This document shows, piece after piece, positions 6,522-50,999 of a stretch of DNA of 64,000 nucleotides; the stretch's first letter is position 1, and each line of letters opens with the position of its first letter. The stretch covers positions 6,593-70,592 of the forward strand of contig JACPSE010000186.1 in assembly GCA_016193465.1 (NCBI GenBank), written 5' to 3'. The notes beneath the pieces were generated by a model that saw only the letters and a list, made by a program, of their open reading frames with translations, did no database searches and was not told the origin of the DNA. Position numbers and translations under genes: made by a program. Source of the stretch: Deltaproteobacteria bacterium. Lineage in GTDB: Bacteria > Desulfobacterota > Binatia > UBA9968.

Positions 6522-7262
6522 ACTACGTGCCGTTTGTAGCAAAATATGATGTTCTAGGCATGGCGGAAAAGGGAATCATTCAGATTCCCACTGCGATGGT
6601 AGATCCAGACAACCGCAACGTTATTGCCGCGGGCAGCGCGCTCGACGCGGTTGCTTATAATCCCAACCTGCTGCGCCCCGAGCTTGTGCCCAAAATCTGG
6701 GAAGACCTTCTCAAACCAGAACTGAAAGGGAAAAAAGTTTGTCATGGATGTTGCCCCCGCCGCTGTTTTTGCTTTGACCCCCGCATGGGGACTGGAGAAG
6801 GTTCTCAGCTTCGCCCGCAAGCTTAGGGAACAGAGTCCCGTGTGGGCACGGGGACATACAAGGATCCTAACCAGCATTGCAGCGGGCGAGTATGCCATGC
6901 ACGGCGCTACCAACTATCACTCGGCGATGCGCCTGAAGGAAAAGAATCCGGCTAATCTGGGGGTTGCACTTGTTGAACCTGTTCCGACGCGACTCCATGA
7001 AGCTCAGGCGGTTCTGGGGACGGCCACAAACCCCCACACAGTTTTGTTGTGGCTCGAGCACATGGCGAGCCCTGAAGTTCAAAGACATCTAGATGAGGTG
7101 GAGCCTTTAAAAAGCTCTATCTATGCTCATGTTTCAGCACTGAGGAAAGCCGTCGAAGGGAAGAAAGTTTCAGTCGCTGCATGGAAATGGTTTTACCAGC
7201 GCGAAGACATTGAAAAACAGATAGCAAGCGCCTACGGGTTCCCAACAGCAGACGTGAAATAG
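6480..7262 (+). pseudogene. decayed paralog of the downstream ABC substrate-binding protein (N-terminally truncated, frameshifted)
   Basis: Two overlapping frames (6458..6826 and 6744..7262) align to residues ~110-340 of the intact SBP at 8691..9746 (EDLLKPELKGKKV~EDLLDPKWKGRIAV; HTVLLWLEHMASPEVQRHLDE~ATKLLLAWLLSPEGAEAVDK). There is no signal peptide, and the first part overlaps the isochorismatase gene 3' end. Confidence 0.55.
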
Positions 7263-7423
7263 AATACACCACTGGTAAGAATAACCGGGGAAATGGCTAT
7301 TCATACGTTTGGCTTCCCAGACGGAATAATTTGACCCCTCTTACTCCCAGCTCGTTTGACCCTTTCATACTCTAGGCCGCTGGCAAATGTCCATCCCTAT
7401 CTGGAAACCTCCCGCTAGTTGAC

Positions 7424-7453
7424 ATCATGCTACCTCATTGGATACTCTGCGCC
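7424..7453 (+). promoter_or_regulatory. sigma70-like promoter candidate TTGACA-N16-GATACT upstream of the ComA-like operon
   Basis: ttgacatcatgctacctcattggatact, followed by a ~150-nt leader before the ATG at 7603. Confidence 0.35.
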
Positions 7454-7602
7454 CTAATACGGCGACCCGGGGCCGGTTCATAGCCCAGGGATGCTGCTTG
7501 GGTTTATAAAGGCTCTCTGCCGCTTGGTCGAGGAGGCCACTTTCGAGTTCTCAGGGGCCGGGCTTAAAAAGCAAATTCTTATAGAACAGAAAGGAGCTCA
7601 AT

Positions 7603-8556
7603 ATGGAGAGACGGTTTTTAGATTTCGTGGAGCTGGCTGCCCGCAGCCGAAAGCCCCGGACTCAAGGCATTACCATCTTTGCCGAATACGGCACGATCAG
7701 CTGGACTAAGGAGATGCTGGACACATGGGGAGAGTATGTCGATGTTGTCAAATATACTCCGGCTCATCTGCATGCGCCGTGGCGCATCATTGAAGAAAAA
7801 GTAAAATTGTACCGAGATTACCAGGTCGGCGTCGCAGCCGATGATCCTATGTTTTCGATTGCCTACTATCAGGGAAAGGCCGACCAATTCCTACGTACCA
7901 TTCGGGATGTGGGCTTTACGCACGCTCAAATCGATACTCAGCACATCAATCTGGGCGCGCGGGCCAATCTCAAAAAACTCCAGGAGGATTGGCAAAAGTA
8001 CATGACGTTGGCGCTTGAGTTAGGCCTTAAGATCGACGGCGAGGTGGGCCAAAAGACTCCCGACGGCGATCTCGCCCGCTCCGGCAAAGGTATGTTGAAC
8101 ATCGATGCGGTCGTCGGGGAAATGAAGCGGCTCCTTAAAGCCGGCTGCGAGCACGTTTATCTGGAAAGCCGCGTGATCCGCGAGGTCATCGGCAACTACG
8201 GGGAAATAGAATCCGGAGCGGCGCAGATTCGAAGGATCGTAGACGCGGTGGGACAAACCAATGTGATCATCGAGATCAGCGGCCAATTGCCGTTTGACAC
8301 CAGGATGTGCCACCGTTTTTGGGCGGTGCGAAATTTCGGGCCGGAAGTCAACATGTCAGGCGGCGGACCGATAGAAGACGCGCGTTACGTTGAGGCGATC
8401 CGTCGCGGGAACACTTTTGTCAATGGTCCGAGTCGGTCGACCAGCAAGCTATGGATAAAATCGTTAGCCAAAAACGGCGGCAAAGCTGCCTCGGAATGGT
8501 GGAAGGAGGAATATCCAATAGATCCCGCGGTAGTAGCGGGCAGAACTCTGAATTGA
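7603..8556 (+). CDS. (2R)-phospho-3-sulfolactate synthase (ComA) family protein, with a C-terminal extension
   Basis: TIFAEYGTISW...YVDVVKY...DQFLRTIRDVGFTHAQID...LALELGLKIDGEVGQK...KAGCEHVYLESRVI resembles the ComA/PF02679 aldolase-type TIM barrel. There is an AAAGGAG SD. Confidence 0.6.
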   Translation: MERRFLDFVELAARSRKPRTQGITIFAEYGTISWTKEMLDTWGEYVDVVKYTPAHLHAPWRIIEEKVKLYRDYQVGVAADDPMFSIAYYQGKADQFLRTIRDVGFTHAQIDTQHINLGARANLKKLQEDWQKYMTLALELGLKIDGEVGQKTPDGDLARSGKGMLNIDAVVGEMKRLLKAGCEHVYLESRVIREVIGNYGEIESGAAQIRRIVDAVGQTNVIIEISGQLPFDTRMCHRFWAVRNFGPEVNMSGGGPIEDARYVEAIRRGNTFVNGPSRSTSKLWIKSLAKNGGKAASEWWKEEYPIDPAVVAGRTLN

Positions 8557-8690
8557 GGCTGTGACGCCGGCTCGCGAAAACGTTTCGCTTTCTGCAAGCG
8601 CAGAGGCAGTAAACGCAAAATCAGAACAGAGAATGAGAACGCTCGCAGCAGAGGCTTGTTTTGAATTCGCCAACTAATAAGGAGTGAGCG

Positions 8691-9746
8691 ATGAAGGTTG
8701 GAAGGACACGGGTTATTTCTTGGCTCGGCCTCGGCGCCGCAATGCTTATGACGGCGCCAGCCTACGGCCAAAGGGTCGGCTGGGAACAAATTCTAGAAAG
8801 ACTTTACCCTGCCGCCAAAAAGGAGGGCGAGGTGGTCTTTAACGGGGGGTCGGGGGAGATGAATGTTGGCGGTAAAGAAGGGCTTGCAAAGTTCGCCAAG
8901 AGATTCCCCGGAGTCAAGCTCACGGTCAGCAACTTGGCCTCTTCCAAGGTCGGACCGCGGGTGATCACTGAAGCCAGGGCGGGAAAAATCACGTTAGACG
9001 CGTATCATGATGATCCTCCACCGGCCAAGGAAATGATTGACCGGGGATTAGTGGCGCAACTCGATCCTCAGGAGTTGACTGAGAAACCGGAAAGGCAGAC
9101 ATGGGTGTTCAGCAACAAGCTCCCTGCAGTGAGTCACACAACAACCCATCTGGCCTATAGTACGAATCTGGTGAAGAAAGCGGATGTGCCGAAGCGCTAC
9201 GAAGATCTCTTAGATCCCAAGTGGAAGGGGCGAATAGCCGTCGATGGGCGGGGGCCGTACGGTTTTACGCACTTACGTCTGGTCTGGGGCGAGGAACGTT
9301 TTTGGAAATTCATCAAGGTATTTCCGGATCAAAAGCCCATCTGGGACACTAGGTGCAGTGGTTCGACCGATCGGGTAGTTATCGGCGAGGTTTATATAGG
9401 TTGCGCTTCGTTCCCGAATGTCCAGGAATTAAAGGCAAAAGGTGCTCCAATCGAATTCCTGCCGCTGGATCCGGTTTATGCCCGCGTCAAACTCTTTATT
9501 GCTATAAAAGGTTCACCCCACCCCAACGCAACGAAACTCTTGCTCGCCTGGCTGCTCTCACCGGAAGGCGCCGAAGCAGTTGACAAAGCGGGCAGCGGGC
9601 CAGCGATTCCTGGAACCAGCTACTACGACGAGTTAATAAAGTCCGGCGCCAAGCTGTTTTACAACGACAAGCTAACCTATGAGCAAATGGTGCTGTTAGA
9701 TAGGACCCGAGACGAAATCGGCAAGTTATGGGGAGTCATGAAGTAA
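8691..9746 (+). CDS. ABC transporter periplasmic substrate-binding protein (Fe3+/thiamine/polyamine-type SBP family)
   Basis: Signal peptide MKVGRTRVISWLGLGAAMLMTAPAYG followed by the SBP fold. It is immediately followed by the fused permease. Confidence 0.8.
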   Translation: MKVGRTRVISWLGLGAAMLMTAPAYGQRVGWEQILERLYPAAKKEGEVVFNGGSGEMNVGGKEGLAKFAKRFPGVKLTVSNLASSKVGPRVITEARAGKITLDAYHDDPPPAKEMIDRGLVAQLDPQELTEKPERQTWVFSNKLPAVSHTTTHLAYSTNLVKKADVPKRYEDLLDPKWKGRIAVDGRGPYGFTHLRLVWGEERFWKFIKVFPDQKPIWDTRCSGSTDRVVIGEVYIGCASFPNVQELKAKGAPIEFLPLDPVYARVKLFIAIKGSPHPNATKLLLAWLLSPEGAEAVDKAGSGPAIPGTSYYDELIKSGAKLFYNDKLTYEQMVLLDRTRDEIGKLWGVMK

Positions 9747-9779
9747 TTGCCGACCATCGCCTGGAGACGGCGTGAGAAC

Positions 9780-11528
9780 ATGCGAATGGGGAGTTACTCC
9801 GTTCGTTCGTGGAGCCGGAAAACATTTACATCAGAGAAACTGCTTTTTGTCAGTGTCACGCTCGTCATCGTTTACCTGACGCTTCCGCCGCTAGCGATGC
9901 TCTTCCTTTCGAGCGTGAAGAGCACGGCCGATAAGCTGCCGATCGAACCCGCCCCGTGGACGCTGTCCAATTACCATCAGGTGCTCGCTGACAGCGAAAC
10001 TTACGTCCTCCTCCAGAACAGTCTGATCTACGCTTCTGGCGTAGTCGCGCTTTCTTTAGCCATAGCGATTGTACTGGTTTGGCTGATCGAAAGGACGGAT
10101 CTTCCGTATCGCAACTTGGTCTTCACATTAATTCTCATTCCGCTTGCCATCCCTGGATTGATCAAAGCCATCGGCTGGTCTTTGCTCGCGAACCCCCGCG
10201 TCGGCGTGCTGAACGTCGTGATGAGGACATGGCTTGGCATAACTGCGGACACGGGTCCGGTGAACATCTATTCGCTTGGCGGCATTATCTTCGTCAGCAC
10301 GCTTTCGATGGTGCCTTCAGTGGTTCTGATGATCTCCGGATGCTTCCGCAATTTCGATCCTGCCCTTGAGGAGGCCGGTGAAACGTGCGGCGTATCTCGG
10401 CTCAGAACTCAGGTGCTTGTGACCCTTCCATTGTTACGTCCGGCGCTATTGGGAGCGCTTATCTATTACTTTGCCAACGCACTCGATGATTTCCAGATTC
10501 CCGCCGTGCTAGGGTTGAGTGCCGGCATCCGTGTGTTCAGCACAAAGATCTTTCTTGCCACGACCCCTACTTACGGCTTACCCGACTACGGGCTTGCCAG
10601 CGCGTACGCCATGTTACTGTTCGTGCTCGCGGCTCTGTTAATCTTGTTTTATCGCAGGACCGTGAGGAAACCCGAGCAGTTTGCGGTTGTCACCGGGAGG
10701 GGATATCAGGCGCGGCCGATTGCGCTCGGCAAATGGAAGTACGCGGCGCTGGCGGGCATTGCGTTTTACTTGGTTCTGGCGGCGGTTTTCCCCCTGATGA
10801 TTCTATTATGGGTCAGTATGCAGCCGTTTCTTAGCGTTCCCTCATTGAGTGCGCTGGGCCGATCGACCGCCGCTGCGTACGTCGCGCTCTTAGAAATGGA
10901 AAAATTTAGAGCAGCGGCGCTCAACACCTTGATTGTTTCTGTTACGGTTGCAACCGGCGTCATGTTGCTCAGTACGGTGAGCGCCTGGATAAGCGTTCGC
11001 TCGCGGTTCTGGGGAAACTGGATACCGGATTTTCTCACTTTTGTTAACAGCGCCGTTCCAACCGTAGTATTCGGCCTGGCGCTTATGTTTGTCTACTTGA
11101 GTTTCCCGTTTCTTTCTCTTTACGGAACGATCTGGATCCTGGTGATTGCTCTCCTAACGCGCTACATCACCTACACGACGCGCTTGATGGGTGGTGCGGT
11201 GACGCAAATCCATCGAGAACTCGAAGAAGCTGCGCTCGCCAGTGGCGCGTCGAAAAGCAGTACCTTTCTGCGCGTCACCTTGCCGCTGTTATTGCCTTCT
11301 TTCGTCAATGGCTGGCTGTGGGTCATCATCCATGCTCTGCGCGAAGCCACGATTGCCATACTACTGATGACTCCGGGCAATGTTGTGCTCGCCGCTCTCA
11401 TCTGGGAGAAATACCAAGAAGCCGGCGACCATAGTTTGGTCGCCGCGATGAGTCTATTGTTGACGGCCGCTTCGCTGCTGCTCACATTTCTTGGCCGCCG
11501 GGCGTTGGCTCTATACGGTGTGCATTAA
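9780..11528 (+). CDS. ABC transporter permease, fused two-domain (FbpB/ThiP-like, two BPD_transp_1 repeats)
   Basis: 593-aa ORF with two repeats of six TM helices carrying EAA-like loops (ALDDFQIP...; EEAALASGAS). The ATG at 9780 is preferred over the upstream TTG. No ATPase gene is adjacent. Confidence 0.8.
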   Translation: MRMGSYSVRSWSRKTFTSEKLLFVSVTLVIVYLTLPPLAMLFLSSVKSTADKLPIEPAPWTLSNYHQVLADSETYVLLQNSLIYASGVVALSLAIAIVLVWLIERTDLPYRNLVFTLILIPLAIPGLIKAIGWSLLANPRVGVLNVVMRTWLGITADTGPVNIYSLGGIIFVSTLSMVPSVVLMISGCFRNFDPALEEAGETCGVSRLRTQVLVTLPLLRPALLGALIYYFANALDDFQIPAVLGLSAGIRVFSTKIFLATTPTYGLPDYGLASAYAMLLFVLAALLILFYRRTVRKPEQFAVVTGRGYQARPIALGKWKYAALAGIAFYLVLAAVFPLMILLWVSMQPFLSVPSLSALGRSTAAAYVALLEMEKFRAAALNTLIVSVTVATGVMLLSTVSAWISVRSRFWGNWIPDFLTFVNSAVPTVVFGLALMFVYLSFPFLSLYGTIWILVIALLTRYITYTTRLMGGAVTQIHRELEEAALASGASKSSTFLRVTLPLLLPSFVNGWLWVIIHALREATIAILLMTPGNVVLAALIWEKYQEAGDHSLVAAMSLLLTAASLLLTFLGRRALALYGVH

Positions 11529-36485: not shown

Positions 36486-36875
36486 TAGAAGGGCTAAAGT
36501 GGATCGATAAGCCGGATTCTGTGGTGGCTCCTAGGAGAAGCCACAGCGATCATTCATCTTGCCCCATGATTGCTCACGGGGTCTAGCGACCTTACCCGAG
36601 GGCTAAGGGCGGACCACCCAACCCTCCTATTTGGTCTTGCTCCAGGTGGGGTTTGCCTAGCATCTACCATCACTGGCAGACCGGTGAGCTCTTACCTCGC
36701 CTTTTCACCCTTACCCACCATCAAAATTGGCGGGCGGTATTTTTTCTGTGGCACTTTCCCCCGATCGCTCGGGGCCGCCGTTAACGGCCACCCTGTCCTG
36801 TGGAGTCCGGACTTTCCTCTCCCGGCCATGCTTGTGGCAGAGCAGAGAGCGACCGCTTGATCCACTTTAGCCCGG
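36486..36875 (-). ncRNA. rnpB: RNase P RNA (bacterial type A)
   Basis: The minus strand contains GGAAAGTCCGGACTCCACAGGACAGGGTG, AGGGTGAAAAGGCGAGGTAAGAGCTCACC, ACCCCACCTGGAGCAAGACCAAATAGG and ACAGAATCCGGCTTATCG, which match E. coli M1 RNA conserved regions. P1 is formed by GGGCTAAAGTGGATC pairing with GATCCACTTTAGCCC as a perfect 15-bp stem. Confidence 0.9.
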
Positions 36876-36904: not shown

Positions 36905-37336
36905 TTAGTCGAATAACGGGCGCCGCGCGTCGTCAATGGCGCGATTGGCCAGTCGGTCAGCCAACCGGTTGTGCTCCCGGCCTACATGAATGATATGATA
37001 AGCCTCAAGCTGGCGCAATAACCCCAATGCCCGCTGATGAAGGCGCTTGAGCTTTTCGTCCTTGACCCGATAAAGACCGTTTAATTGACGCACCAAGAGC
37101 TGGGAATCGCTCTGGACCCGGAGTCTTTTTCCGCCCAGTCGAAGAACCCGTTCAAGCCCCATGAGAAGCCCTTCGTATTCGGCGACGTTGTTCGTTGCGT
37201 GACCGAGGTAGCGGCAGAGCTCATCCAGCAACTTGCCACTCTCGTCAAAGATGGCGGCGCCACACCCCGCATTCCCTGGATTTCCCCTGGCCGCCCCGTC
37301 CACCATGAGCAGCCACTCTCCACCGGGGGCTGACAT
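36905..37336 (-). CDS. rnhA: ribonuclease H (RNase HI-like)
   Basis: WLLMVDGAARGNPGNAGCGAAIFD...NNVAEYEGLLMGL...VQSDSQLLV...REHNRLADRLAN. The start is set at the internal Met, 5 nt after the upstream gene stop. Confidence 0.75.
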   Translation of the reverse strand: MSAPGGEWLLMVDGAARGNPGNAGCGAAIFDESGKLLDELCRYLGHATNNVAEYEGLLMGLERVLRLGGKRLRVQSDSQLLVRQLNGLYRVKDEKLKRLHQRALGLLRQLEAYHIIHVGREHNRLADRLANRAIDDARRPLFD

Positions 37337-37341
37337 GGACG

Positions 37342-38070
37342 CTAGAGTTGCCTGTCGCTTGGGACAGGCGGTTTGTAGTAGAGGATCCGGTGGCAACTAG
37401 GGCAGAGAATCAGCTTTTCACTTTTGATAATTTCATTCCAGAGCTGAGGCGGGATATTCATAAAACAACCCTGGCAAATTCCCTCTGAGACCGCGACCAC
37501 GGCCATGCCGCCGCGTCGGGAAAAAATCAGCTCATACCGCCCGATCAGCTCTCCATTGAGCTGGGTGGCGATCGACTGACGGACCGCCGACGCATCGGCG
37601 ACAGCCCGGTCGATCCCGGCAACCTGCGCTTCTATCTCGCCCCGTCTTTCCCTCCAAGCGTCCTCCAATTTCTTCAACTCCTCCTCTTTCGCCCCGAGGG
37701 ATGCGGCGCATGCCTCCAGCTCCTCCATGAGTTTAATCAGCTCCTCCTCCAACTGGGCATTGCCCAGTTTGGTCTGATCGATTTCTCGCTGCAGGGCCTG
37801 CAGTTCTTTAATGCTTTTGATGCGGTTCATACGCATCCGCTTGTCCGTCACCTTCCTACTTTCTTCCTGCAACAACTGCTCCTTTTCCTGCCGCAGCTTA
37901 TCTTTCTCGGCCCATTCGGCTCTAACCGTCGCCAACTCTGCATTCTTCGCCTGGACCTCTTCTTCCCTCTTTTCGATTTCAGCTAAGAGCTCTCCCTTGG
38001 CCCCGCTTTTTTCCTTGATCTCGCGGTCCGCGTTCTGGAGCGAAGCCAAAATCTCTATCTGCTCCCGCAA
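37342..38070 (-). CDS. COG1579-type zinc-ribbon and coiled-coil protein (zf-RING_7, C4 zinc ribbon at the C-terminus)
   Basis: Long coiled-coil followed by CQGC...CPSCHRILY; TTG start with GGAGGG upstream. Confidence 0.75.
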   Translation of the reverse strand: MREQIEILASLQNADREIKEKSGAKGELLAEIEKREEEVQAKNAELATVRAEWAEKDKLRQEKEQLLQEESRKVTDKRMRMNRIKSIKELQALQREIDQTKLGNAQLEEELIKLMEELEACAASLGAKEEELKKLEDAWRERRGEIEAQVAGIDRAVADASAVRQSIATQLNGELIGRYELIFSRRGGMAVVAVSEGICQGCFMNIPPQLWNEIIKSEKLILCPSCHRILYYKPPVPSDRQL

Positions 38071-40612: not shown

Positions 40613-42013
40613 TTAAAGTCCGAGTTTCCCCGGATTCATGATATTGTTTGGATCGAGCACCTGCTTAATCCGGCGCATAACCTCAATCCCATAACCGTGC
40701 TCTTCGGCCATGAGCGACGCCAGCTTCACGCCTACGCCGTGCGTGTACTCCATTGATCCCCCCATCTTTTGGACCAGACGGAGCAACTCATCCACGGTCT
40801 CTTCCAGGGCCAGTTGAGCATTGTTCGCGCCCTCATCTTCGATCCCCAAGCGCATGGAAAAAAGCTCCGGCTGAATCCAGAGGCCGCTCTCCTGAAGTTG
40901 AACTCTACGCCTCTTAATGATCTCTATTGCTGACTTTCTAAAAGGCAAGACCTTGGATGCCGGCAACGCCACGTGGATCCAATCCCAGTAAACCCCATCC
41001 ATGCCACGCTCTCTCCTTTGCCGCCGGTTCTGGATAAACCGGCGCGCAATGATGTGGCGGTTACGCCAAAACCTTTCCGCCTTCTCCTGCGGCAACCTCC
41101 TACCGCCGGCCTGATCACAGATGGACGATGCGAGTTTCTCCTGCGCCTCAACCACCTGCCTGTTCCCCTCAAAAGCCAGATAGAGAACCGCTCCGCCCTG
41201 AAACTCGTCATCGCCATCGCCAAAATCCACCAAAGCGGGCCTCAGGCCACGAGCGAAAATTGCCTGAATCGCTTTGTAGCCCTTTTCAAAAGACTCAAAG
41301 AGAACCGCATGGAGGGCGCGCTGTTCAGGCTGCGGAAATGTTCTGATCGTAGCCTCTGTGATGATTCCAAAACAGCCCTCGCCGCCGATAAGAAGAAATT
41401 TGAGATCGATTCCCGCGGAAGACTTCGGTACGGCCCGAGTGCGCAGAAGCTCGCCATTAGGCAAAACGGCTTCTAGGCCCATGACCTGCTCCCCCATCGA
41501 GCCGTAGATCCCAGCGCGATAACCCATGCTGTTGGTTGAGATCGCACCGCCGACGGTCGCCACAGGCAGAGTCCAGGGATCATGGCCGAGAATAAACCCT
41601 TTCTTGTTTAACTCCTTCTCCAGCGCCTCGAGCACGACCCCGGCTTGAGCCGTGGCGGTGCGCGCCTCGCTATCTATCTCCAGAACCTTATCCATTCTTC
41701 TCAGGTCCACGACGATTCCCGGCTTGATGCTCAGCGCCCCACCCATGAGCCCCGAGCCGCCCCCATAGGGCACGATGGGGACCTTCTCTTCGTTCGCCAG
41801 CAGGACGATCTCGCGCACCTCACGCGTCGAAACCGGCAACACGACGCACAGAGGAACAGCTACATCCGGCTTCCGTAACGGGTGGAGCCTGCCCTTACTC
41901 AGGGCGTCCCATGAGAGCATGTCCAGCTGTTCGGGGTCCGTAACGATCTGATCAGGGCCAAGAAAGCGCGAGAACCTGCCGAGAATCTTTTGATCGAAGC
42001 TCAAAGTAAACAC
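40613..42013 (-). CDS. FAD-binding oxidoreductase (FAD-linked oxidase, GlcD/D-lactate dehydrogenase-like)
   Basis: FAD_binding_4 N-terminal domain (PIVPYGGGSGL) and a C-terminal FAD-oxidase domain. Confidence 0.8.
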   Translation of the reverse strand: MFTLSFDQKILGRFSRFLGPDQIVTDPEQLDMLSWDALSKGRLHPLRKPDVAVPLCVVLPVSTREVREIVLLANEEKVPIVPYGGGSGLMGGALSIKPGIVVDLRRMDKVLEIDSEARTATAQAGVVLEALEKELNKKGFILGHDPWTLPVATVGGAISTNSMGYRAGIYGSMGEQVMGLEAVLPNGELLRTRAVPKSSAGIDLKFLLIGGEGCFGIITEATIRTFPQPEQRALHAVLFESFEKGYKAIQAIFARGLRPALVDFGDGDDEFQGGAVLYLAFEGNRQVVEAQEKLASSICDQAGGRRLPQEKAERFWRNRHIIARRFIQNRRQRRERGMDGVYWDWIHVALPASKVLPFRKSAIEIIKRRRVQLQESGLWIQPELFSMRLGIEDEGANNAQLALEETVDELLRLVQKMGGSMEYTHGVGVKLASLMAEEHGYGIEVMRRIKQVLDPNNIMNPGKLGL

Positions 42014-42675: not shown

Positions 42676-43581
42676 ATGCGCGGAACAACACCGAGACGTG
42701 AGCAGGGAATGGCCGACCCCGCGCTGGCCTCGATGGTCCGTGCAATGGGGTTGGAGAACGCGCGCCACTACACGGCCGCGACGCCCAAAATAAAGGCATA
42801 CCGCGATCGTTGGGCGGAGCTGGCGAAATATCGCGACGGTCCGGTCAACCCACGGCGGGTCGAAGTAACGGCTCCGGCGGAGATGGCAACGCAGATCAAA
42901 GCCAAGGCCTTCGAACTTGGAGCCGATATGGTGGGCATCTGCCGGTTAAAACCTCATATGATCGACCTCGGAGAAGATCTACCCCACGAGTACGTCATCG
43001 CCGCCTGCGTGGCGGAGGATTACGAGAAGGTGCTTCTCGGCGCCAACGCGGTGGAGGAAGAAGCGATGCGGGTCTACGCCACCTGCTCGGACATCGCCAC
43101 CGAGCTAGCAGCCCACATTCGCGACCTCGGCTACCCGGCGCTGGCTCATCACAACGGTGGCAGCGCCGTCCAGGCCATTCCGATTTTTTACCAGGTGGGC
43201 TTCGGGGAACTCGGGCGCCACGGCAGCCTGATCCACGAAAGATACGGCGCCAGTTTTCGCCCCGGCTTCGTCACCACGGATCTGCCCCTCGCCGAGGACC
43301 AGCCCCGCGAGTTCGGTGTCCAGGACTTCTGCATGCACTGCAACGCTTGCATGCGCAACTGCCCCGGCGACGCCATCCCAAAAGACCCCGTCATCACGGA
43401 CGGCATCAAGCGCTGGCTCATCGACCTGGAGAAATGCTACCCCTATTCGCGCCTGCGCGATGAATACTGCCACCTATGCGTCGACGTCTGCCCGTACAAC
43501 GTGAGGTCCCACCCGAAGACTTACAAGAGCTTTATGAAGCAGCGAAAGCAGTCCGGCTACAAAACGCCGAAATCCTGGTAA
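42676..43581 (+). CDS. 4Fe-4S dicluster iron-sulfur protein (reductive-dehalogenase/QueG-like C-terminal ferredoxin motifs)
   Basis: CMHCNACMRNCP and C..C..VCPY motifs. The start is possibly at M12. Confidence 0.55.
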   Translation: MRGTTPRREQGMADPALASMVRAMGLENARHYTAATPKIKAYRDRWAELAKYRDGPVNPRRVEVTAPAEMATQIKAKAFELGADMVGICRLKPHMIDLGEDLPHEYVIAACVAEDYEKVLLGANAVEEEAMRVYATCSDIATELAAHIRDLGYPALAHHNGGSAVQAIPIFYQVGFGELGRHGSLIHERYGASFRPGFVTTDLPLAEDQPREFGVQDFCMHCNACMRNCPGDAIPKDPVITDGIKRWLIDLEKCYPYSRLRDEYCHLCVDVCPYNVRSHPKTYKSFMKQRKQSGYKTPKSW

Positions 43582-43994: not shown

Positions 43995-45460
43995 TAATCC
44001 GACAATAATTTACCCATTCAGGCAGCCATTTTGAGCTTTTGGTCGATCATTCGAATCAGCGCTTGGGCAGGTTTAGCCACCGAAAAACGTAGAACGGAAT
44101 AGCCTTGAGGTCGTAGGAGCCGAGCCGGTTGATGGATTAGCTTGAAGCGAAGGGTCTTCAGACTCTGCAGGAGAAAACGGAAGGTCCTTTTACGCGACCT
44201 GGGCTTTTGGGTAGCTGTGGTCTGAATCTGAAAGCTCCTCAGGAGGTTATGTCCCAACACGGAGATTTGCTGCCAAGCCGAGTTGGCGCCGTAGTGATGG
44301 GTGGGCACGACATCGAAAGCCCATTCCCCCTTGAGCTCGGCGAAGGTCTTCTCCTGCGCTCCCCGTCCAGCCATGAAGTCCCACAAAGCGGCGGCAGAAA
44401 GATCCCTGTTGGTGGTCGCAGCCGAGTACTCAAAGTAGCCGTCATCGGGGTCAAACAGATCAAGCTGGTAGTTCTTCCTGCTTTTATGATGCACGGGTTT
44501 TCGGTAGATGACCACTCGCAAGATCTTTTCCCAAGCGGGAACCGTCAGAGACAGCTCGAAGAAGCCCATCCCTTCTGGGAGAGGATGCCAGCGGCTGCGC
44601 TCTCGGATCAAAGGCACCAGACCCAACCACTTGAAGAAGGGGACCTTGATCGCATAAGAAGCTCCTCTTCTCTCCAACAGACCGATCACCTCCCTCTGGA
44701 AGAAAGCCCCGTCCATGCGAAATTCCAAAGGCAAATGTCTTCCCAGGCGGATTCTCAAATCTTCGATCAGATCACGCAGGAAGGCCACCGCGCCTTTGGA
44801 GTCATGGACATTGCCGGGCCGATTCTTGACTCTCAGGATGTGTCCGGTCTGAGCCAGATGGGCGAGGATGGGATAGTAGGAGGAATCTTTGCGATGATGG
44901 GGATTGAACCCCCGAAAGGCCCAAGAGACACTGGCGCCTGTGGTGATGACGCTGCCGTCGATATCCAGGGTCAAACGAGCAAGCCCCTCTTTTTCAATGG
45001 CCTCACAAACCATTTGACTGTTAATCTCGACCAGGGCCTGAAGCGACTTAAGCGTGAAGCGCTTGAGCCAGCGGGCAACACTGCGATCCCGGGGCAGACG
45101 CATCAGACCGCAGAACCGCTTCACCAGAGGATCTTCACAGACATAGCCCAGATGTTCCAGCCTTCGGCCACCTACAAGAACAAGGACCAAGATCACCAAA
45201 ATCATGTCGATCGCCCGGTAGTCTCCTCCCAGACCATGAGCGGCAAACACCGACTGGACACGGCGATGAAGCTCGATGATCCGAAAGTATCGCCGGATCA
45301 ACTCCAGCCCTCCATAAGCTGTGATATCCTGGGAAGCAAATTCGATCTTGAGAAAGCTCTTGCACGGAGAGTAAAAATCGGCTCTACTGAGTCTCACTTG
45401 GAGTGGCCTCCTTGTAGGGTGATTGGGTCGGTGTTGCAACTGCTTTATCTCCTATAATGG
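43995..45460 (-). mobile_element. IS1380-family insertion sequence (approximate ends)
   Basis: Contains the 473-aa IS1380-like DDE transposase. Exact IRs not resolved. A ~30-bp segment matching the transposase 3' end recurs immediately upstream at 45455-45485. Confidence 0.6.
44018..45439 (-). CDS. IS1380-family DDE transposase
   Basis: ITAYGGLELIRRYF...DIDGSVITTGAS...RGFNPHHRKDSSYYPILAHLAQTGHILRVKNRPGNVHDSKG; ~470 aa. Confidence 0.75.
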   Translation of the reverse strand: MQHRPNHPTRRPLQVRLSRADFYSPCKSFLKIEFASQDITAYGGLELIRRYFRIIELHRRVQSVFAAHGLGGDYRAIDMILVILVLVLVGGRRLEHLGYVCEDPLVKRFCGLMRLPRDRSVARWLKRFTLKSLQALVEINSQMVCEAIEKEGLARLTLDIDGSVITTGASVSWAFRGFNPHHRKDSSYYPILAHLAQTGHILRVKNRPGNVHDSKGAVAFLRDLIEDLRIRLGRHLPLEFRMDGAFFQREVIGLLERRGASYAIKVPFFKWLGLVPLIRERSRWHPLPEGMGFFELSLTVPAWEKILRVVIYRKPVHHKSRKNYQLDLFDPDDGYFEYSAATTNRDLSAAALWDFMAGRGAQEKTFAELKGEWAFDVVPTHHYGANSAWQQISVLGHNLLRSFQIQTTATQKPRSRKRTFRFLLQSLKTLRFKLIHQPARLLRPQGYSVLRFSVAKPAQALIRMIDQKLKMAA

Positions 45461-45606: not shown

Positions 45607-45885
45607 ATGAAGAGAATACCACCGAGTGTACAGATGAAGGAAGAGGTCACAGCGCTGCTTCGAGGGGAGCCGCCAGCAGGCGATGGTGGCCAGGGACCGA
45701 TGGAGGGTTTTGTGCGGGGCACGGCGCGCTACATGCTGCAAGTGGCTATTGAGGCGGAAGCCACCGCGTTTTTGGGCCGGGGGCACTACCGCCGAGGGGA
45801 TCGCATGCGCCTGGGCTGGCGCAACGGCTATGAGCCCAAAGGCTTGCAGACGGATGGGAGCGGGGGGGCGCATCTTTACCTTTGA
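45607..45885 (+). pseudogene. IS256-family (mutator-type) transposase, N-terminal ~90-aa fragment
   Basis: EEVTALLRGEP...MLQVAIEAEATAFLGRGHYRRGDRMRLGWRNGYEPKGLQTDGSG matches the IS256 Tnp N-terminus (FLGR..YER...GYRNGY). Truncated. A GGAGGAGG SD and an upstream hairpin are present. Confidence 0.6.
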
Positions 45886-45956
45886 CATTCGCTAAGGTGC
45901 CAATGAGAGAAAGCGTCAATGTCACAGTGAAAGATTTGACCCTCAAACCCTAGTTT

Positions 45957-46883
45957 TCAAGGATACTTAGTCTTTGCCTCAAGCGGAGTCAAAATTTCTC
46001 TCACGGAATGATCATCAGCGATAACAGTCACTTGTTGCGTATGAGTACTGTCATGAGCCAAATTTTTAATTTGGATCGCAGGATGTACAGACCTCCAGAA
46101 ATAATGGACGAATTCTTTGATCTGCTCACTGCTCATTCCTTTTCCTTGTGCCCGCAATATCTCTTCGGCTTGATCCCTCCATTTAAGTGAAACCTGATAG
46201 TGCGGCACGAACAAAACGTTCATAAATTCAATCATATCCCACAAAGGCTCATAATCAGAAAGTTTTTCATTGATATCCTTGGCAAACTGGATATGCTCCG
46301 GTGTGTCCAAAGCCGGTAAGCCAACTTCAAATATAGACTTATCTAAAACTCTCCTTGCCCCAAGCATCCAACCGTCATAAAAAATAAAATCAGGCTTTTT
46401 TGTAATAACCTTCCAACCTACTCTGTCTCCATCTCCATGCTCTGCTCCCTTATCGTATATTGGCACCTCAACTTCCATGCCGTCTTTCATAGTTCTTAGA
46501 TCAGTCAAGTTTTTCATTGCCAGAGGTATGTCATGGGTTACCCCCCTTCTTATAAACCTTGGGCCTTTTTCTCTTAATTTATTAAGTTCTTCGTGTGTAA
46601 CGTAATGGTCATCAATTGAGAGAGAAACACAAGTGTAACCTGAAAATTTAAGTAAGATTTCTAAAACCTCTCCTTGAGTTGTTTTGCCTGCGCCTTGGAT
46701 CGCTGAAATTCCAACAATCAAACCATCCAAATTTTTCTTCTGCTTTTTTTTATCAATTAATTTTTGTATGTATGGAAGGTAGTAATTCCTCAGGTCTTGT
46801 TTTAAATTGTCTTTTGATATTTCAGGACGCTTTTCAAATATTGGATTAAATATTGTTATATTTTTCTCTATATCAAAATTCAT
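45957..46883 (-). CDS. P-loop kinase of the D-glycerate 3-kinase (plant GLYK / yeast Tda10) family
   Basis: LIVGISAIQGAGKTTQ...SLSIDDHYVTHEE...YDKGAEHGDGDR...FYDGWMLG...SSEQIKEFVHYFWRSVHP parallels the GLYK family. The gene lies in a markedly AT-rich segment. Confidence 0.65.
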   Translation of the reverse strand: MNFDIEKNITIFNPIFEKRPEISKDNLKQDLRNYYLPYIQKLIDKKKQKKNLDGLIVGISAIQGAGKTTQGEVLEILLKFSGYTCVSLSIDDHYVTHEELNKLREKGPRFIRRGVTHDIPLAMKNLTDLRTMKDGMEVEVPIYDKGAEHGDGDRVGWKVITKKPDFIFYDGWMLGARRVLDKSIFEVGLPALDTPEHIQFAKDINEKLSDYEPLWDMIEFMNVLFVPHYQVSLKWRDQAEEILRAQGKGMSSEQIKEFVHYFWRSVHPAIQIKNLAHDSTHTQQVTVIADDHSVREILTPLEAKTKYP

Positions 46884-47003
46884 GATACATTAGATTGTAA
46901 CGCAACGGATTACCTATTCAATAACCCTCTGTTTTCAACAAACCTAATAACAGGTTTCGTCCTTGCCCTCGTGCCTGAGCAAAGGCTACCTTCCGAGAAA
47001 ACT

Positions 47004-47060
47004 CTAAAGAGAAAGATTGGTTGGATTAGCCAGAGGCGGACAGAGGGGACATTGGGAAGC
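47004..47060. repeat. 55-bp direct repeat R1a
   Basis: tctaaagagaaagattggttggattagccagaggcggacagaggggacattgggaagc; partner at 47967-48022. Confidence 0.6.
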
Positions 47061-47064
47061 TCGA

Positions 47065-47310
47065 CTACGCGGCCGCGAAATCGGGTGTGTCATGGAGAAC
47101 CATCAATTGATCGGGCCGAAGGAGTAAGATGGCAAACGCGCGGCCGGAGCGGTCGGCGAACTCAACCTCGCACGCGCCATCCTGGTAGGTCATCACAACA
47201 GTGCCGATCTGGCCACGGCGCAGAAGCAAAGTCTGACCGCCCTCGAAGTGCTTCGTTCGCACATCTTGCAGCAAGGCAACCACGTCATGCATTTTGAGTT
47301 CGGCGACCAT
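47065..47310 (-). CDS. DUF4926-like small protein
   Basis: 81 aa, MHDVVALLQDV...VEFAD motif pattern. Confidence 0.45.
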   Translation of the reverse strand: MVAELKMHDVVALLQDVRTKHFEGGQTLLLRRGQIGTVVMTYQDGACEVEFADRSGRAFAILLLRPDQLMVLHDTPDFAAA

Positions 47311-47360
47311 GGTCTAGAGTAAATAGCAAGTTAAAGAGCCAGGAGTCGATTACTCTTACT

Positions 47361-47510
47361 CAGTCCAGCACCCAAATTCCGCGTTCTCGAATCGCATCAT
47401 ACATCGCATCCGGAGCGAGGTCGGCGCCATTCGGCCACTGAATCGCGCCCAGCACGACTCGGACTTGAGCGAGGTCACACGCCAGGGAACGGCATGCCGT
47501 ATCGCCGGCT
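47361..47510 (-). pseudogene. DUF2442-like C-terminal remnant (no start codon), the expected partner of DUF4160
   Basis: The frame reads ...VRVVLGAIQWPNGADLAPDAMYDAIRERGIW*, resembling the DUF2442 C-terminus. No ATG, and the upstream frame is closed by TGA. Confidence 0.35.
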
Positions 47511-47771
47511 CTACTTCAGCGGTTCGATCGGTTTCGGGCTTTGCATTCGGCTGCATAGGTTCCAATCCTCCATCAGTTCATCGCGACGTTCCGCGGCCCA
47601 CTCCAATACTAACACCATTGCCCGGCCGGGCAAAGAGCCGCGGATTACCTGGAAGTCTCGCAGGTCAATCAGTGCTTCGTGCTCGGCGTACAGAGCATGG
47701 AAGTGCGGAGGCGCATGATCCCGCCAAAACATTTGGATCACGATGCCGTAAAAGACGCTGATCGTCGGCAT
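47511..47771 (-). CDS. DUF4160-family protein
   Basis: MPTISVFYGIVIQMFWRDHAPPHFHALYAEHEALIDL matches DUF4160. Confidence 0.65.
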   Translation of the reverse strand: MPTISVFYGIVIQMFWRDHAPPHFHALYAEHEALIDLRDFQVIRGSLPGRAMVLVLEWAAERRDELMEDWNLCSRMQSPKPIEPLK

Positions 47772-47966
47772 AAGAGTTCAAAACAAAACACCTGCTTGAC
47801 AGGATCTTTTTCAGGATACTACGCAGGGACTAAATTCGCCAACCCCGTTTAGACCCAGAATCCGCGGACACATAACGTAGGCCCGTCTCGGTTCGCTTCA
47901 TCCCTCACCTTTCGCCTATATCCTTTAACTCTGACGCCTCACGGCTCACGCCTTTCGCCTAATTTT

Positions 47967-48022
47967 ATAGAGAAAGATTGGTTGGATTAGCCCGAAGCGA
48001 AGGAGGGGATGTTCTGGGCTGC
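47967..48022. repeat. 55-bp direct repeat R1b
   Basis: tatagagaaagattggttggattagcccgaagcgaaggaggggatgttctgggctgc. Confidence 0.6.
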
Positions 48023-48092: not shown

Positions 48093-48665
48093 ATGCCAAA
48101 ATCCAAGACTTGCCCCCGGATCCCCAAGATGTGTAACCCTACTTACCTACTACCCCCACAGGTATTACGGACAGGGGAAGGCTGTCGTGCACGGACTCCT
48201 GCCGAATCAGATGTATGGTTGCAGCAGCTAGCAGTAAGAGAGTGCTTAGAGAAAGCCAGGCACGCCGTATCGGAGGTAGTTCCTCCGGCTGATGAATTCG
48301 AAGCATGGCTACAGCGAAAGAAGTATGCATTTCCAGTCTGGAATCTAGGCGGCCTTAGGGACGCCGTATCAGAAGCGGTTACGCCGGCTGCTGAGCAGTT
48401 TGCGAAAGCGCTCGGAATTTACGGCGCCTTAGTCCTCACCAAAGAAATCGTCCGTGAACAGATGGGTTCTGCTATGACTGCATTTCATGTGGACCGGAGA
48501 GATGACCCTGACGAGAGTGAGTTTTCTACTATCTGCTTCACAATCACCACTCATGAGTCAGTAGACTCAATGCTGCGAAGAGACAATGATTTGCAAGATG
48601 TGCTCATTAGTCAAGTTCCACCAAATGCCTGTCTACACTTCTCATTTGCTTATCAATTCGAATAA
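48093..48665 (+). CDS. hypothetical protein with an internal ~19-aa tandem repeat
   Basis: 190-aa ORF. Internal repeat ARHAVSEVVPPADEFEAW / LRDAVSEAVTPAAEQFAKA. No family recognised. The start is uncertain (M1 or M13). Confidence 0.4.
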   Translation: MPKSKTCPRIPKMCNPTYLLPPQVLRTGEGCRARTPAESDVWLQQLAVRECLEKARHAVSEVVPPADEFEAWLQRKKYAFPVWNLGGLRDAVSEAVTPAAEQFAKALGIYGALVLTKEIVREQMGSAMTAFHVDRRDDPDESEFSTICFTITTHESVDSMLRRDNDLQDVLISQVPPNACLHFSFAYQFE

Positions 48666-48668
48666 CTA

Positions 48669-49085
48669 GTGGACCCAACCGACTTTCTTGTTGTCGCACA
48701 GAATCTCCATCCATCTGCGTCAGAAGCGGAAAGGCGCACGTCTATCAGCCGTTTGTACTATGCCTTATACAATCTGATCCACGAAGCGCTATCAAGCGTG
48801 GGCGTGTCGCTTAGCAGGAACGCCGAAGACCATAGGTTGCTTGTTTACTACCTTACACATTGCCGTCCTCCTGCGCCGGCGGCTGGTGTTGGGCTAGCAC
48901 TCAATAGTCTTCGAACAGCTCGCAATATTGCGGATTATGATATGAGAGTAACTGTTGATCCTAAGCAATCAGAATTCGCGTACAAACGGGCACTCGATGA
49001 CTTCGGAAAATTCAAAGCCTTGGATCAAAGGGCATTAGACAATCTTGCCAGATGCATCCAACATCTACCGCCGCTGAAGATTTAG
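48669..49085 (+). CDS. hypothetical alpha-helical protein (possible HEPN-like)
   Basis: 138 aa, 4 nt after the previous gene, so likely an operon. ISRLYYALYNLIHEAL and LRTARNIADYD are reminiscent of HEPN-domain helices but the match is not diagnostic. Confidence 0.4.
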   Translation: MDPTDFLVVAQNLHPSASEAERRTSISRLYYALYNLIHEALSSVGVSLSRNAEDHRLLVYYLTHCRPPAPAAGVGLALNSLRTARNIADYDMRVTVDPKQSEFAYKRALDDFGKFKALDQRALDNLARCIQHLPPLKI

Positions 49086-49173: not shown

Positions 49174-49220
49174 CAGCTTTGGAACGACAAGCCGTACCGT
49201 CATTCCAAGAAATCATTCAA
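49174..49220. repeat. ~48-bp direct repeat R2a
   Basis: cagctttggaacgacaagccgtaccgtcattccaagaaatcattcaa; partner at 50050-50098, ~90% identity. Confidence 0.6.
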
Positions 49221-49234
49221 CGGTTTGTAGTATT

Positions 49235-49561
49235 CTACTTTGGTTCCTTTTTGGTTTTTGAACGGGCAGCGGTCTTCGGTTCGACCGCCAATCGGAAACC
49301 GATGGCGTCGAGAACAGTGGACAAACTAAAAAACTCCGGATTCCCCTTCGTTGAGAGCATCCTGTAGAGATTTTCTCTGTTAAGGGAAGTAGACGCCGCG
49401 AGCTTGCCCATTCCACCATACGAATCGACGACATCCCTCAAGGCCAGAAGAAAGACCTCAGGCTCCCCGTCTTCCAGAGCCGCGTTTAAATACCCTACAG
49501 CTTCGGTCGGATCTTTGAGCGCCTCCAAAAGATTTCTTTGATAACTCCTACTTTTAGCCAT
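49235..49561 (-). CDS. addiction-module antidote protein (HigA-like HTH antitoxin, TIGR02684-type)
   Basis: NLLEALKDPTEAVGYLNAALEDGEPEVFLLALRDVVDSYGGMGKLA...ENLYRMLSTKGNPEFFSLSTVLDAIGFRL. Confidence 0.7.
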   Translation of the reverse strand: MAKSRSYQRNLLEALKDPTEAVGYLNAALEDGEPEVFLLALRDVVDSYGGMGKLAASTSLNRENLYRMLSTKGNPEFFSLSTVLDAIGFRLAVEPKTAARSKTKKEPK

Positions 49562-49570
49562 TGTGAACTC

Positions 49571-49897
49571 CTACTTTTTATAGTCCTCCCAATAGTCGAT
49601 AGCTCTCCTTATATCCTCAGCTTGTGAACTTTTATCTCCGCCGCAAAGCAAAATAACCAACTTCATCCCCACCTCGCCGAAATAAACACGATAACCGGGT
49701 CCGTAATCGATTTTGAGTTCCAGGACGCCACCACCGACCGGCTCACAGTTGCCCAAGTTTCCCAATCGGATGCGAGCGATCCTCGCACGAACTATATCTC
49801 TGGCTCGTTGGTCCCGGAGCGAATCCATCCAATCGTCAAAAGGACAACTGCCATCAGAGCGAACGTAGTTCTCAACCTGTTTCGCTGAAACTTCCAT
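49571..49897 (-). CDS. addiction-module killer protein (RelE/ParE-superfamily toxin, TIGR02683-type)
   Basis: 108 aa, 9 nt upstream of the antidote gene on the same strand. VRARIARIRLGNLGNCEPVGGGVLELKIDYGPGYRVYF matches the killer-protein family. Confidence 0.7.
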   Translation of the reverse strand: MEVSAKQVENYVRSDGSCPFDDWMDSLRDQRARDIVRARIARIRLGNLGNCEPVGGGVLELKIDYGPGYRVYFGEVGMKLVILLCGGDKSSQAEDIRRAIDYWEDYKK

Positions 49898-50049: not shown

Positions 50050-50098
50050 CAAGCTTTGGGACGACAAGCCCTACGGTCATTCCGGGAAATCATTCAAA
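50050..50098. repeat. ~48-bp direct repeat R2b
   Basis: caagctttgggacgacaagccctacggtcattccgggaaatcattcaaag. Confidence 0.6.
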
Positions 50099-50573: not shown

Positions 50574-50999
50574 ATGGCTCTCAACATAGTTTCACCTAAA
50601 AAAGAGAAATTCCTTTTAGAGCGTATGCAGGCCTTGGGTGTTCGGGAGCAGGACATCGAGGAACAATTTGTCCGCTCTTCGGGAGCCGGCGGTCAGAAGG
50701 TCAACAAGGCGTCTACCTGTGTTGTGCTCCGCCATCGGCCCACGGGCATTCGAGTGAAGTGCCAAAGAGAACGCTCGCAGGCCCTCAATCGTTTTTTGGC
50801 GCGAAGAATCCTGCTGGACAAAATCGAGGCGAAGCTCAGAGGAGCCGAGTCCGCGGAACAGCAAGAGATTGCCAGGATTCGACGGCAGAAAAGAAAGCGC
50901 TCACGGCGCGCCAAGCTTAAGCTCCTCGCGGATAAGCGCCACCAGGGGAAAAAGAAATCCCTCCGAAACGCCGTGCGACCTGACCATTACGACGACTGA
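50574..50999 (+). CDS. arfB: alternative ribosome-rescue factor / peptidyl-tRNA hydrolase ArfB (GGQ protein)
   Basis: [14 protein letters not shown] motif and a basic C-terminal tail; 141 aa. Confidence 0.85.

Follow-up and report, generated by a model that had tools for sequence, protein, structure and literature searches.

Class III glycerate kinases, a family defined in PMC2063504, occur in plants, fungi, cyanobacteria and a few proteobacteria, and glycerate kinase activity has been measured for the Arabidopsis and yeast (Tda10/YGR205w) members (PMC2063504). The cyanobacterial enzymes have been linked to the 2-phosphoglycolate metabolism of oxygenic phototrophs (PMC10970406). A survey of groundwater metagenome-assembled genomes described inter-phylum gene exchange with Patescibacteria, in which most events lay within or into Patescibacteria and some cases had Patescibacteria as the predicted donors (PMC12455944). 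Here, we analyzed a 64,000-nt stretch of contig JACPSE010000186.1 (assembly GCA_016193465.1, deposited as Deltaproteobacteria bacterium), hereafter the window, and focused on one AT-rich kinase gene on its minus strand. Judged from its sequence and its structure model, the encoded protein belongs to the class III (GLYK/Tda10-type, COG4240-type) P-loop D-glycerate 3-kinase family. We consider it likely that the gene was acquired horizontally from a Daviesbacteria-like member of the Candidate Phyla Radiation (CPR); this estimate is a joint one, covering the single-gene transfer, the enzyme class, the donor, the recipient, and the reading of expression and role together. The groundwater survey contains similar single-gene transfers between CPR and an unrelated phylum in a subsurface/soil-type community, but lists no case in which a central-metabolism kinase moved from Daviesbacteria to Binatia with the donor promoter attached.

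Family, fold and composition of the kinase

The open reading frame (ORF) is intact from ATG to TGA and encodes 308 residues, and an identical protein has been deposited under the name 'glycerate kinase [Deltaproteobacteria bacterium]'. When searched against the PDB with phmmer, the protein matched 7xpc (GLYK, D-glycerate 3-kinase; E = 5.5e-30, query residues 41-263), the Cryptococcus D-glycerate 3-kinase (GLYK) 6ckg (1.7e-18) and yeast YGR205w/Tda10 (1odf; 3.5e-15), while pantothenate kinase, the next family after GLYK/Tda10, reached only 0.023. An AlphaFold2 model built with 24 relatives had a predicted local distance difference test (pLDDT) score of 86.2 and a predicted template modelling (pTM) score of 0.85, and the Foldseek search against the PDB gave the same order of families. 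Its ranks 1-4 were 7xpc_A, 1odf and 6ckg_A/B (E 5.6e-18 to 5e-16, template modelling (TM) score 0.69-0.75), followed by a second tier in which type I pantothenate kinases came before phosphoribulokinases and uridine kinases (E 1e-11 to 1e-6). The first-pass annotation of this DNA, which was made from the letters alone, had proposed a GLYK/Tda10-family kinase rather than an ordinary uridine or pantothenate kinase, and both searches bear this out.

The protein aligned with the solved GLYKs at the motifs GxxGxGKT, S(I/L)DD(F/H)Y, THD, YDK(S/G), (E/D)GWM and WRxQ(A/Q)E. Its Walker A loop, AIQGAGKTT at residues 61-69, matches GxxGxGK[ST] and aligned with SAPQGCGKTT of 7xpc; residues G64, G66, K67, T68 and T69 were invariant in the 24 relatives. 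Tested against the GLYK family set S(I/L)DDFY, THD, YDKS..G.GDR, EGWM.G and WR.Q.E...GM, the kinase showed the forms SIDDHY, THD, YDKGAEHGDGDR, YDGWMLG and WRDQAEE..GKGMS. These motifs are invariant within the CPR clade, and the kinase differs from the solved GLYKs by conservative variants. All five motifs that the first pass had quoted are present, at residues 58, 89, 143, 168 and 253. Among positions at least 95% conserved in 117 relatives, the window copy keeps 119 of 121; the two deviating residues, D107G and E182K, both lie outside the motifs, and such a number is typical for the family, whose members have a median of 1 deviation each.

Compared with its top structural matches, plant GLYK (At1g80380-type, 7xpc) and Cryptococcus 6ckg, the kinase is homologous over the whole kinase domain, with a similar Walker A loop and the five family motifs, and the predicted reaction is alike. 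It differs from them in having DDHY for DDFY, YDKG for YDKS and YDGW for FEGW, in being without a plastid transit or N-terminal extension and without a role in photorespiration, and in falling in a separate, previously uncharacterised CPR clade, where the activity is a prediction. Yeast Tda10/YGR205w has a similar fold and similar motifs (Foldseek E 2.5e-16), but is a eukaryotic cytosolic protein with ~26% identity and another physiological setting. Type I pantothenate kinase (CoaA) and the PRK/uridine kinase family (PF00485) have the P-loop kinase fold in common with the window kinase. Since their matches are much weaker in sequence and structure and they are without the GLYK-specific motifs, we place the window kinase outside both. 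Based on homology and on the gene context in the donor, the kinase is predicted to convert D-glycerate and ATP to 3-phosphoglycerate, with ATP bound by the Walker A loop GAGKTT.

The gene is foreign to its surroundings in composition. Its GC content is 37.6%, and no other segment of 927 bp in the window is as low (z = -5.4); outside the region, the lowest such segment has 47.5%. The first pass had seen an AT-rich segment in a genome of ~60% GC; the AT-rich segment holds, while the window measures 55.1%. Compared with 26 host genes of the same window, which also formed the reference set for the codon adaptation index (CAI), the kinase gene deviated in GC (z = -7.7), in GC at third codon positions (GC3; 0.350 vs 0.666 +/- 0.054, z = -5.9) and in self-referenced CAI (0.593 vs 0.746 +/- 0.035, z = -4.3), so that the two checks suggested for it, of GC and of codon adaptation, both gave clear differences. 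At 100-nt resolution the AT-rich block extends from ~45900 to ~46955, that is, over the kinase gene and ~70 nt upstream. This composition shows no amelioration of GC or codon usage in the host.

Probable donor and recipient of the gene

Apart from the deposited protein itself, strong full-length matches had 67-77% identity and, where named, came from Candidatus Daviesbacteria, 'Patescibacteria group' or ACD groundwater bins. We scanned GTDB with one genome per species (185,579 species; the window's own genome is not among the representatives) and found that all relatives at 52-75% identity lay on contigs of low GC (0.33-0.49). More than 30 CPR species have the gene in their genomes, where it makes up a deep and diverse clade. 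Behind them came class III glycerate kinases of cyanobacteria (Nostoc, Anabaena and similar), which aligned at 34-43% identity over almost the whole length and are the closest bacterial relatives outside the CPR. A HMMER search of 1.84 billion cluster representatives returned 1,894 relatives at E <= 1e-3 and 58 at E <= 1e-30. Among 5.8 billion proteins, no other high-GC relative was found except the kinase's own cluster at >=90% identity and a metagenome locus, L094, which is described below.

A neighbour-joining tree (Kimura distances, 299 columns, 100 bootstraps) united the window protein with the CPR sequences in one clade, which was split from the cyanobacteria at 100% bootstrap. The window protein was nested in this clade as sister to the protein of locus L004 (91%), and grouped with those of L005 and L007 at 57% and 27%; the L007 contig encodes a protein that is named 'Patescibacteria group bacterium'. 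The enolase encoded on L004 has its best matches in Daviesbacteria, Patescibacteria and Microgenomates (53-77% identity). The contigs of L004 and L005 have 39-40% GC, and their kinase genes have 38% GC, like the window gene, to which they are 74% identical at the DNA level, a distance at which synonymous sites are saturated. The horizontal acquisition from a low-GC donor that had been suspected from the letters thus finds support in both the distribution and the phylogeny of the relatives. The likeness to eukaryotic and cyanobacterial enzymes holds for the family only, since the nearest relatives are Daviesbacteria and neither eukaryotes nor cyanobacteria.

Two observations concern the CPR clade itself. 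Many of its low-GC contigs are titled 'uncultured Gammaproteobacteria bacterium isolate binchicken_*' (L006, L008, L009, L011, L013, L016, L017, L020, L023 and others). Kinases from these contigs are interspersed with those of named Daviesbacteria, the enolase of L011 groups with CPR enolases, and, judged from these sequences, the Gammaproteobacteria titles appear not to reflect the organisms. Further, the kinase ORFs of L023-L035 and L040 (392-451 aa) form one CPR subclade with a conserved inserted domain of ~90-105 aa directly behind the GDGDR motif, following residue 155 in the numbering of the window protein. We considered a mobile element or intein for this insertion of ~100 aa and rejected it, as the insertion is homologous across the members and represents a subclade domain. 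The Daviesbacteria kinase clade is large and automatically annotated as glycerate kinase, and, as far as we found, no study of it exists in the literature searched.

The gene neighbourhood in part of the donor group would fit a role in central metabolism. In L004, L005, L007, L022 and L025, which include the closest relatives of the window gene, the kinase has as neighbours several of a 2-hydroxyacid dehydrogenase (2-Hacid_dh), a His_Phos_1 phosphoglycerate mutase, enolase and pyruvate phosphate dikinase (PPDK). The 2-hydroxyacid dehydrogenase gene of L005 is convergent and overlapping with the kinase gene, and L004 also carries a MOFRL-type (class II) glycerate kinase beside it. From this context, the donor kinase would channel glycerate to 3-phosphoglycerate and so feed phosphoglycerate mutase, enolase and PPDK towards pyruvate, and the adjoining 2-hydroxyacid dehydrogenase could make the glycerate. 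The clade and its glycolytic neighbours suggest an entry of glycerate into a short fermentative pathway in Daviesbacteria.

The gene also seems to have arrived with its own promoter-like leader. In the sequence upstream, a promoter scan found a sigma-70-like promoter with a -35 element TTGAAT (46921-46916), a 16-nt spacer and a -10 element TACAAT (46899-46894), and 10 nt separate the -10 element from the ATG. The upstream leader scan found no Shine-Dalgarno sequence before the kinase ATG, and for this reason the mRNA is predicted to be nearly leaderless. L004, the CPR sister, carries a similar block (TTGAAT...TAYAATCTAA / TTGAAT...TATAATCTAAAATACTGTG) at an equal distance from the start codon, which suggests that the promoter is the gene's native one.

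The recipient side of the window is chromosomal and of the Gram-negative type, with a complete dcw/mur cluster, MraZ/RsmH, an AsmA-family protein and a branched-chain amino acid (liv-type) ABC transporter. Its MurC is 77-88% identical to proteins of Candidatus Binatota/Binatia and of older 'Deltaproteobacteria bacterium' bins, and on these sequence grounds the host is a Candidatus Binatota/Binatia bacterium. The deposited name is explained by the classification of Binatota 16S sequences by the Ribosomal Database Project (RDP) as unclassified Deltaproteobacteria (PMC8262859).

Proposed role in the recipient and alternative explanations

Our best reading, based on sequence, is that the kinase would be catalytically competent but an accessory, possibly neutral, second glycerate kinase in the host. 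Transcription may start from the imported sigma-70-like promoter or come by read-through from the DUF4160/DUF4926 pair upstream; the DUF4926 gene, which has the same orientation, is 181 nt upstream of the kinase gene, and no terminator is predicted in the interval. Every serine-cycle enzyme has been reported in all Binatota genomes (PMC8262859), and the glycerate kinase step was therefore probably already present in the host. The acquired enzyme, having arrived without its donor partners, would provide an accessory and probably dispensable second route from glycerate into central metabolism. We also observed a GlcD-like FAD-linked oxidase and a 4Fe-4S dicluster protein with glycolate-oxidase-like domains (40613-42013 and 42676-43581) 3-5 kb from the kinase; a link of these genes to glycerate metabolism may be a coincidence.

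Several points weigh against the combined reading of origin, enzyme class and role, and they are given here beside the rival explanations. The first such explanation, less likely than a competent accessory enzyme and yet a serious one, is that the kinase is a functionless passenger, intact only because the transfer is recent and drifting to decay. This is what appears to have befallen the copy in L094 (JGI metagenome 3300025319, contig Ga0209520_10155208), which retains the 3' half of the kinase gene at 97% DNA identity; in its product (protein P0363), an N-terminus of 53 aa is joined in frame to the kinase, which is truncated at codon 161. Over 147 codons, the window and L094 differ by 9 nonsynonymous and 3 synonymous changes, a ratio of nonsynonymous to synonymous substitution rates (dN/dS) of 0.73, which rests on 12 substitutions, part of them on the L094 pseudogene branch. 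At least four changes relative to the family consensus are derived on the window branch (E182K, K206E, I231V and Y260H), and E182K falls at a 96%-conserved site. Thus, there is no evidence of strong purifying selection on the kinase in the recipient. The unameliorated composition, the position among insertion sequence (IS) remnants and selfish cassettes, and the complete serine cycle of the host phylum also fit a passenger, and in the 64-kb window we found no homologue of a MOFRL kinase or a 2-hydroxyacid dehydrogenase that could accompany the enzyme. In contrast, the ORF is full-length and its conserved positions are kept to the extent typical of functional members, the promoter-like block has been retained, and the few substitutions behind the dN/dS value belong partly to the pseudogene. 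We retain the competent accessory kinase as the better description.

The L094 locus has further features of its own. The 53-aa N-terminus of P0363 resembles UDP-GlcNAc 2-epimerase by our own reading, with no Pfam match, and positions 1-1451 of the locus comprise more AT-rich DNA on the fusion side, with GC-rich DNA on the other; this suggests that a related genome contains a CPR-derived insert that is larger or has been rearranged differently. Similarly, another protein, P0367 (176 aa), has an aminoacyl-tRNA-synthetase-like N-terminus joined to the kinase from about residue 165, with a breakpoint near that of P0363.

It is improbable, in our estimate, that the kinase acts on another substrate, possibly together with the neighbouring toxin-antitoxin/defence genes. 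The curated models would leave room for this, since only uridine kinase and nucleoside/nucleotide kinase models of NCBIfam matched, at E 1e-4 to 1e-1 and far under their cut-offs; PF00485, the model of the PRK/uridine kinase superfamily, scored 21.6 bits with a cut-off of 22, and no GLYK-specific curated model was found in the Pfam or NCBIfam library. The superfamily of PRK, uridine kinase and pantothenate kinase is functionally diverse (PMC2063504), and structural alignments give the window protein only 22-27% identity with characterised GLYKs. We found no residue-level description of the glycerate site in the accessible literature and no characterised member of the CPR clade in the literature searched. 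Moreover, most other CPR loci have no glycolytic neighbours within 6 kb of the kinase, and the window gene is co-oriented with the DUF4160/DUF4926 pair without an intervening terminator. However, the GLYK/Tda10 matches are better than those to pantothenate and uridine kinases by 7 to 25 orders of magnitude in sequence and structure, and the partners in the donor are glycolytic and glycerate enzymes.

The first pass had gone further and suggested a nucleotide or metabolite kinase accessory to a defence system. This idea is not supported: PADLOC-DB gave 0 families at E <= 1e-3 for the kinase and 9 neighbouring ORFs, the donor neighbours are of the glycolytic and glycerate type, and the toxin-antitoxin-like neighbour cassettes, including that with DUF4926, occur without the kinase in related genomes. 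We therefore rejected a defence accessory and keep to a class III glycerate kinase.

An assembly or binning chimera, in which a co-occurring CPR fragment had been wrongly joined to the Binatia contig, is unlikely, as both ends of the unit were seen in independent assemblies, and we would give it very little weight. The foreign unit extends from 45856 to ~46970 (1,115 nt, 38.8% GC) between flanks of 62% and 57% GC. It is flanked by IS sequences on one side and by a multi-copy short repeat on the other, which are sites prone to assembly error. Three Logan per-run assemblies (SRR12113418, SRR12113422 and SRR12113425) contain the identical gene with a 100% match to the window; their contigs cover the sequence from 47182 or 47030 down to 45913-45922 and so span the right AT-rich/GC-rich junction, joining the AT-rich gene to 230 nt of GC-rich host sequence. 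The two repeat copies of the window have only 24 identical nt, which is less than the Logan k-mer, whose size we take to be 31. The Logan contigs end inside the tail of the unit, and the left junction of the window (45855/45856) lies beyond them. The left terminus of the unit is seen in L094, an independent assembly: it is alike with the window down to 45856, through the same tail, and then runs into different GC-rich DNA; it differs from the window in 30 extra nt directly after the kinase stop codon. On the window side, the Pfam alignment of an IS256/Mutator transposase fragment ends at residue 83, which corresponds to nt 45855. As the sequence in common with L094 ends at 45856 and the IS256 fragment at 45855, we set the left terminus of the foreign unit at 45856. 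Moreover, no remnants of the donor neighbours (2-Hacid_dh, phosphoglycerate mutase, enolase or a Big_13 protein) were found around the kinase.

The closest sampled relative has just 77% identity, and the true donor is thus unsampled; this distance is the one point found in favor of a reverse transfer or ancient vertical inheritance, with a gene native to Binatia later acquired by CPR, which we practically dismiss because the window sequence is nested in a deep and diverse CPR clade, in GC and codon usage it resembles CPR genomes and is an extreme outlier among the host's genes, the gene is absent from 45 related Binatia-like loci, and the protein searches revealed no further high-GC relative.

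The transfer from a Daviesbacteria-like donor is a clean but ordinary one, as both the enzyme family and horizontal transfer are well known, and its main result is a more precise annotation, namely a CPR-derived class III glycerate kinase and not a defence gene. It is an unusually clean example of a gene leaving a CPR bacterium for a free-living phylum, with donor-type promoter and composition intact and both junctions corroborated. Such outward transfers can hint at the organisms with which CPR cells associate.

Insertion site and its surroundings

The features around the insertion are collected in Table 1. As the first pass had noted, the kinase sits beside IS remnants and repeat-delimited blocks: an IS256 remnant, an IS1380-type gene and a direct repeat were all found. 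The IS1380-type transposase gene (473 aa) is host-like (GC 0.545, CAI z = -0.5), as are the genes of the DUF4926/DUF4160 cassette (CAI z = +0.9 and -0.2), which lies upstream of the kinase on the same strand.

Table 1. Features of the window at and around the kinase gene, with the evidence for each.
Feature	Position	Strand	Evidence
Class III glycerate kinase coding sequence (predicted)	45957..46883	-	ORF, PDB matches, AlphaFold2/Foldseek, CPR-clade tree, GC 0.376
AT-rich upstream leader, apparently transferred with the gene	46884..46970	-	Promoter scan, block in common with L004, GC 0.39
100-nt tail after the stop codon	45856..45956	-	Common with L094; GC 0.495
IS256/Mutator transposase N-terminal remnant, 83 aa	45607..45855	+	PF00872, residues 33-83, 19.4 bits (cut-off 21)
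IS1380-type DDE transposase gene	44018..45439	-	Pfam DDE_Tnp_1_4 4.8e-35
Degenerate partial top6A 3' end plus ~30 nt; right boundary of the foreign unit	46971..47040	+	22-mer core, start of BLAST homology
DUF4926 (47065-47310) and DUF4160 (47511-47771) cassette	47065..47771	-	Pfam 3.1e-21, 2e-21
Second partial top6A 3'-end copy, closing the DUF4926/DUF4160 cassette	47961..48010	+	Direct repeat
Class A RNase P RNA	36492-36868	-	309 bits

The repeat at 46971 (39-55 nt) recurs at 47961 as a direct repeat with 87% identity over 39 nt and a 24-nt identical core; none of 100 shuffles gave two matches. Its 22-nt core has 45 exact matches in metagenome contigs, all of them host-like at 49-60% GC. In an anchored alignment, the repeat proved to be the 3' end of a coding sequence (...KDFQYLTKSYLPRKLKEKDWLD-stop; ...ELDALANKDFQYLTKSYLPRKLKEKDWLD-stop) plus ~30 nt. 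The full gene is present in L059, where Pfam identifies it as topoisomerase VI subunit A, with subunit B before it (top6B and top6A at 7130-10268). In 16 of the 45 Binatia-like loci, there are 2-3 partial copies in the same orientation, mostly 0.4-1.2 kb apart, the first copy in these arrays being the real end of top6A; we observed partial copies in the window, L059 (10200-11180), L090, L080, L067, L092 and others. Between the partial copies lie small toxin-antitoxin-like cassettes, for example HigBA-like pairs or DUF4926 together with DUF4160 or DUF6883. Loci L059 and L090 carry, one after the other, top6B, top6A, the DUF4926 cassette of the window (94% identity) and a second partial copy.

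BLAST homology of the window to more than 15 related loci starts sharply at 46971-46976, and the segment 43000-46970 had no match in the 45 related Binatia-like loci. Further, top6A and top6B are absent elsewhere in the 64-kb window, the copy at 46971 being partial and broken in frame. From the start of homology and this absence, it follows that the kinase and the two IS remnants hold the place of the topoisomerase VI genes or of a further cassette. They fill the proximal part of a hypervariable stretch, which in related genomes begins directly behind the topoisomerase VI genes. Only 0.1% of the 600-bp windows of these arrays have less than 42% GC, and since compositionally foreign DNA is so rare there, the kinase is exceptional even within the arrays.

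We tried and rejected several mechanisms for the insertion. An integron cassette with an attC site was considered because of a superficially attC-like GTTGGAT core; without a systematic search for an integrase gene, it was rejected because the element at the boundary proved to be coding sequence from the 3' end of top6A and, as single-stranded DNA, folds no better than shuffled sequences (-9.7 kcal/mol, z = -0.47). For a composite transposon, the unit has a single truncated IS256-type fragment at one end and the top6A 3' copy at the other, and no long repeats flank the kinase gene. A replacement of the interior of one IS256 copy by the kinase was rejected as well, because the right-hand repeat is top6A and not an IS256 3' end. 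We regard a third partial repeat (44133-44153) as a probable chance match; it falls on the other strand, within the part of the IS1380-type transposase gene that encodes the C-terminus.

The insertion site thus brings to light a cassette array that recurs in Binatia-like genomes and is anchored at the 3' end of top6A; this array is the most unusual thing that we saw, outside the kinase finding proper. It is conceivable, though we think it has only a small chance of being right, that the stretch after the topoisomerase VI genes in Binatia is an undescribed site-specific gene-capture array without attC hairpins, into which the kinase was taken up as a cassette from a Daviesbacteria cell in contact with the host. 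If this were true, the kinase would be the genomic footprint of a CPR-host pairing not identified by other means.

At 48093-49085, two co-oriented ORFs (190 and 138 aa; GC 0.49-0.50, CAI z = -4.6 and -3.3) had no Pfam or PADLOC match and are possibly a further foreign cassette of the array. A HigA-like/Gp49-toxin pair at 49235-49897 lies between direct repeats of another kind (49175-49220 and 50052-50097; 46 nt, 89% identical). An F420-oxidoreductase/NADP-binding-domain gene at 4376-5134 has 81%-identical counterparts in L090 (3939-4713) and L065 (4202-4977); there, the counterpart lies inside the cassette region, directly by an ArfB-like gene (window 50574-50999), and it is either a paralogue or evidence of rearrangement. 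Lastly, an RNase H / RVT_3-type ORF (36905-37396, minus strand) immediately adjoins the RNase P RNA.

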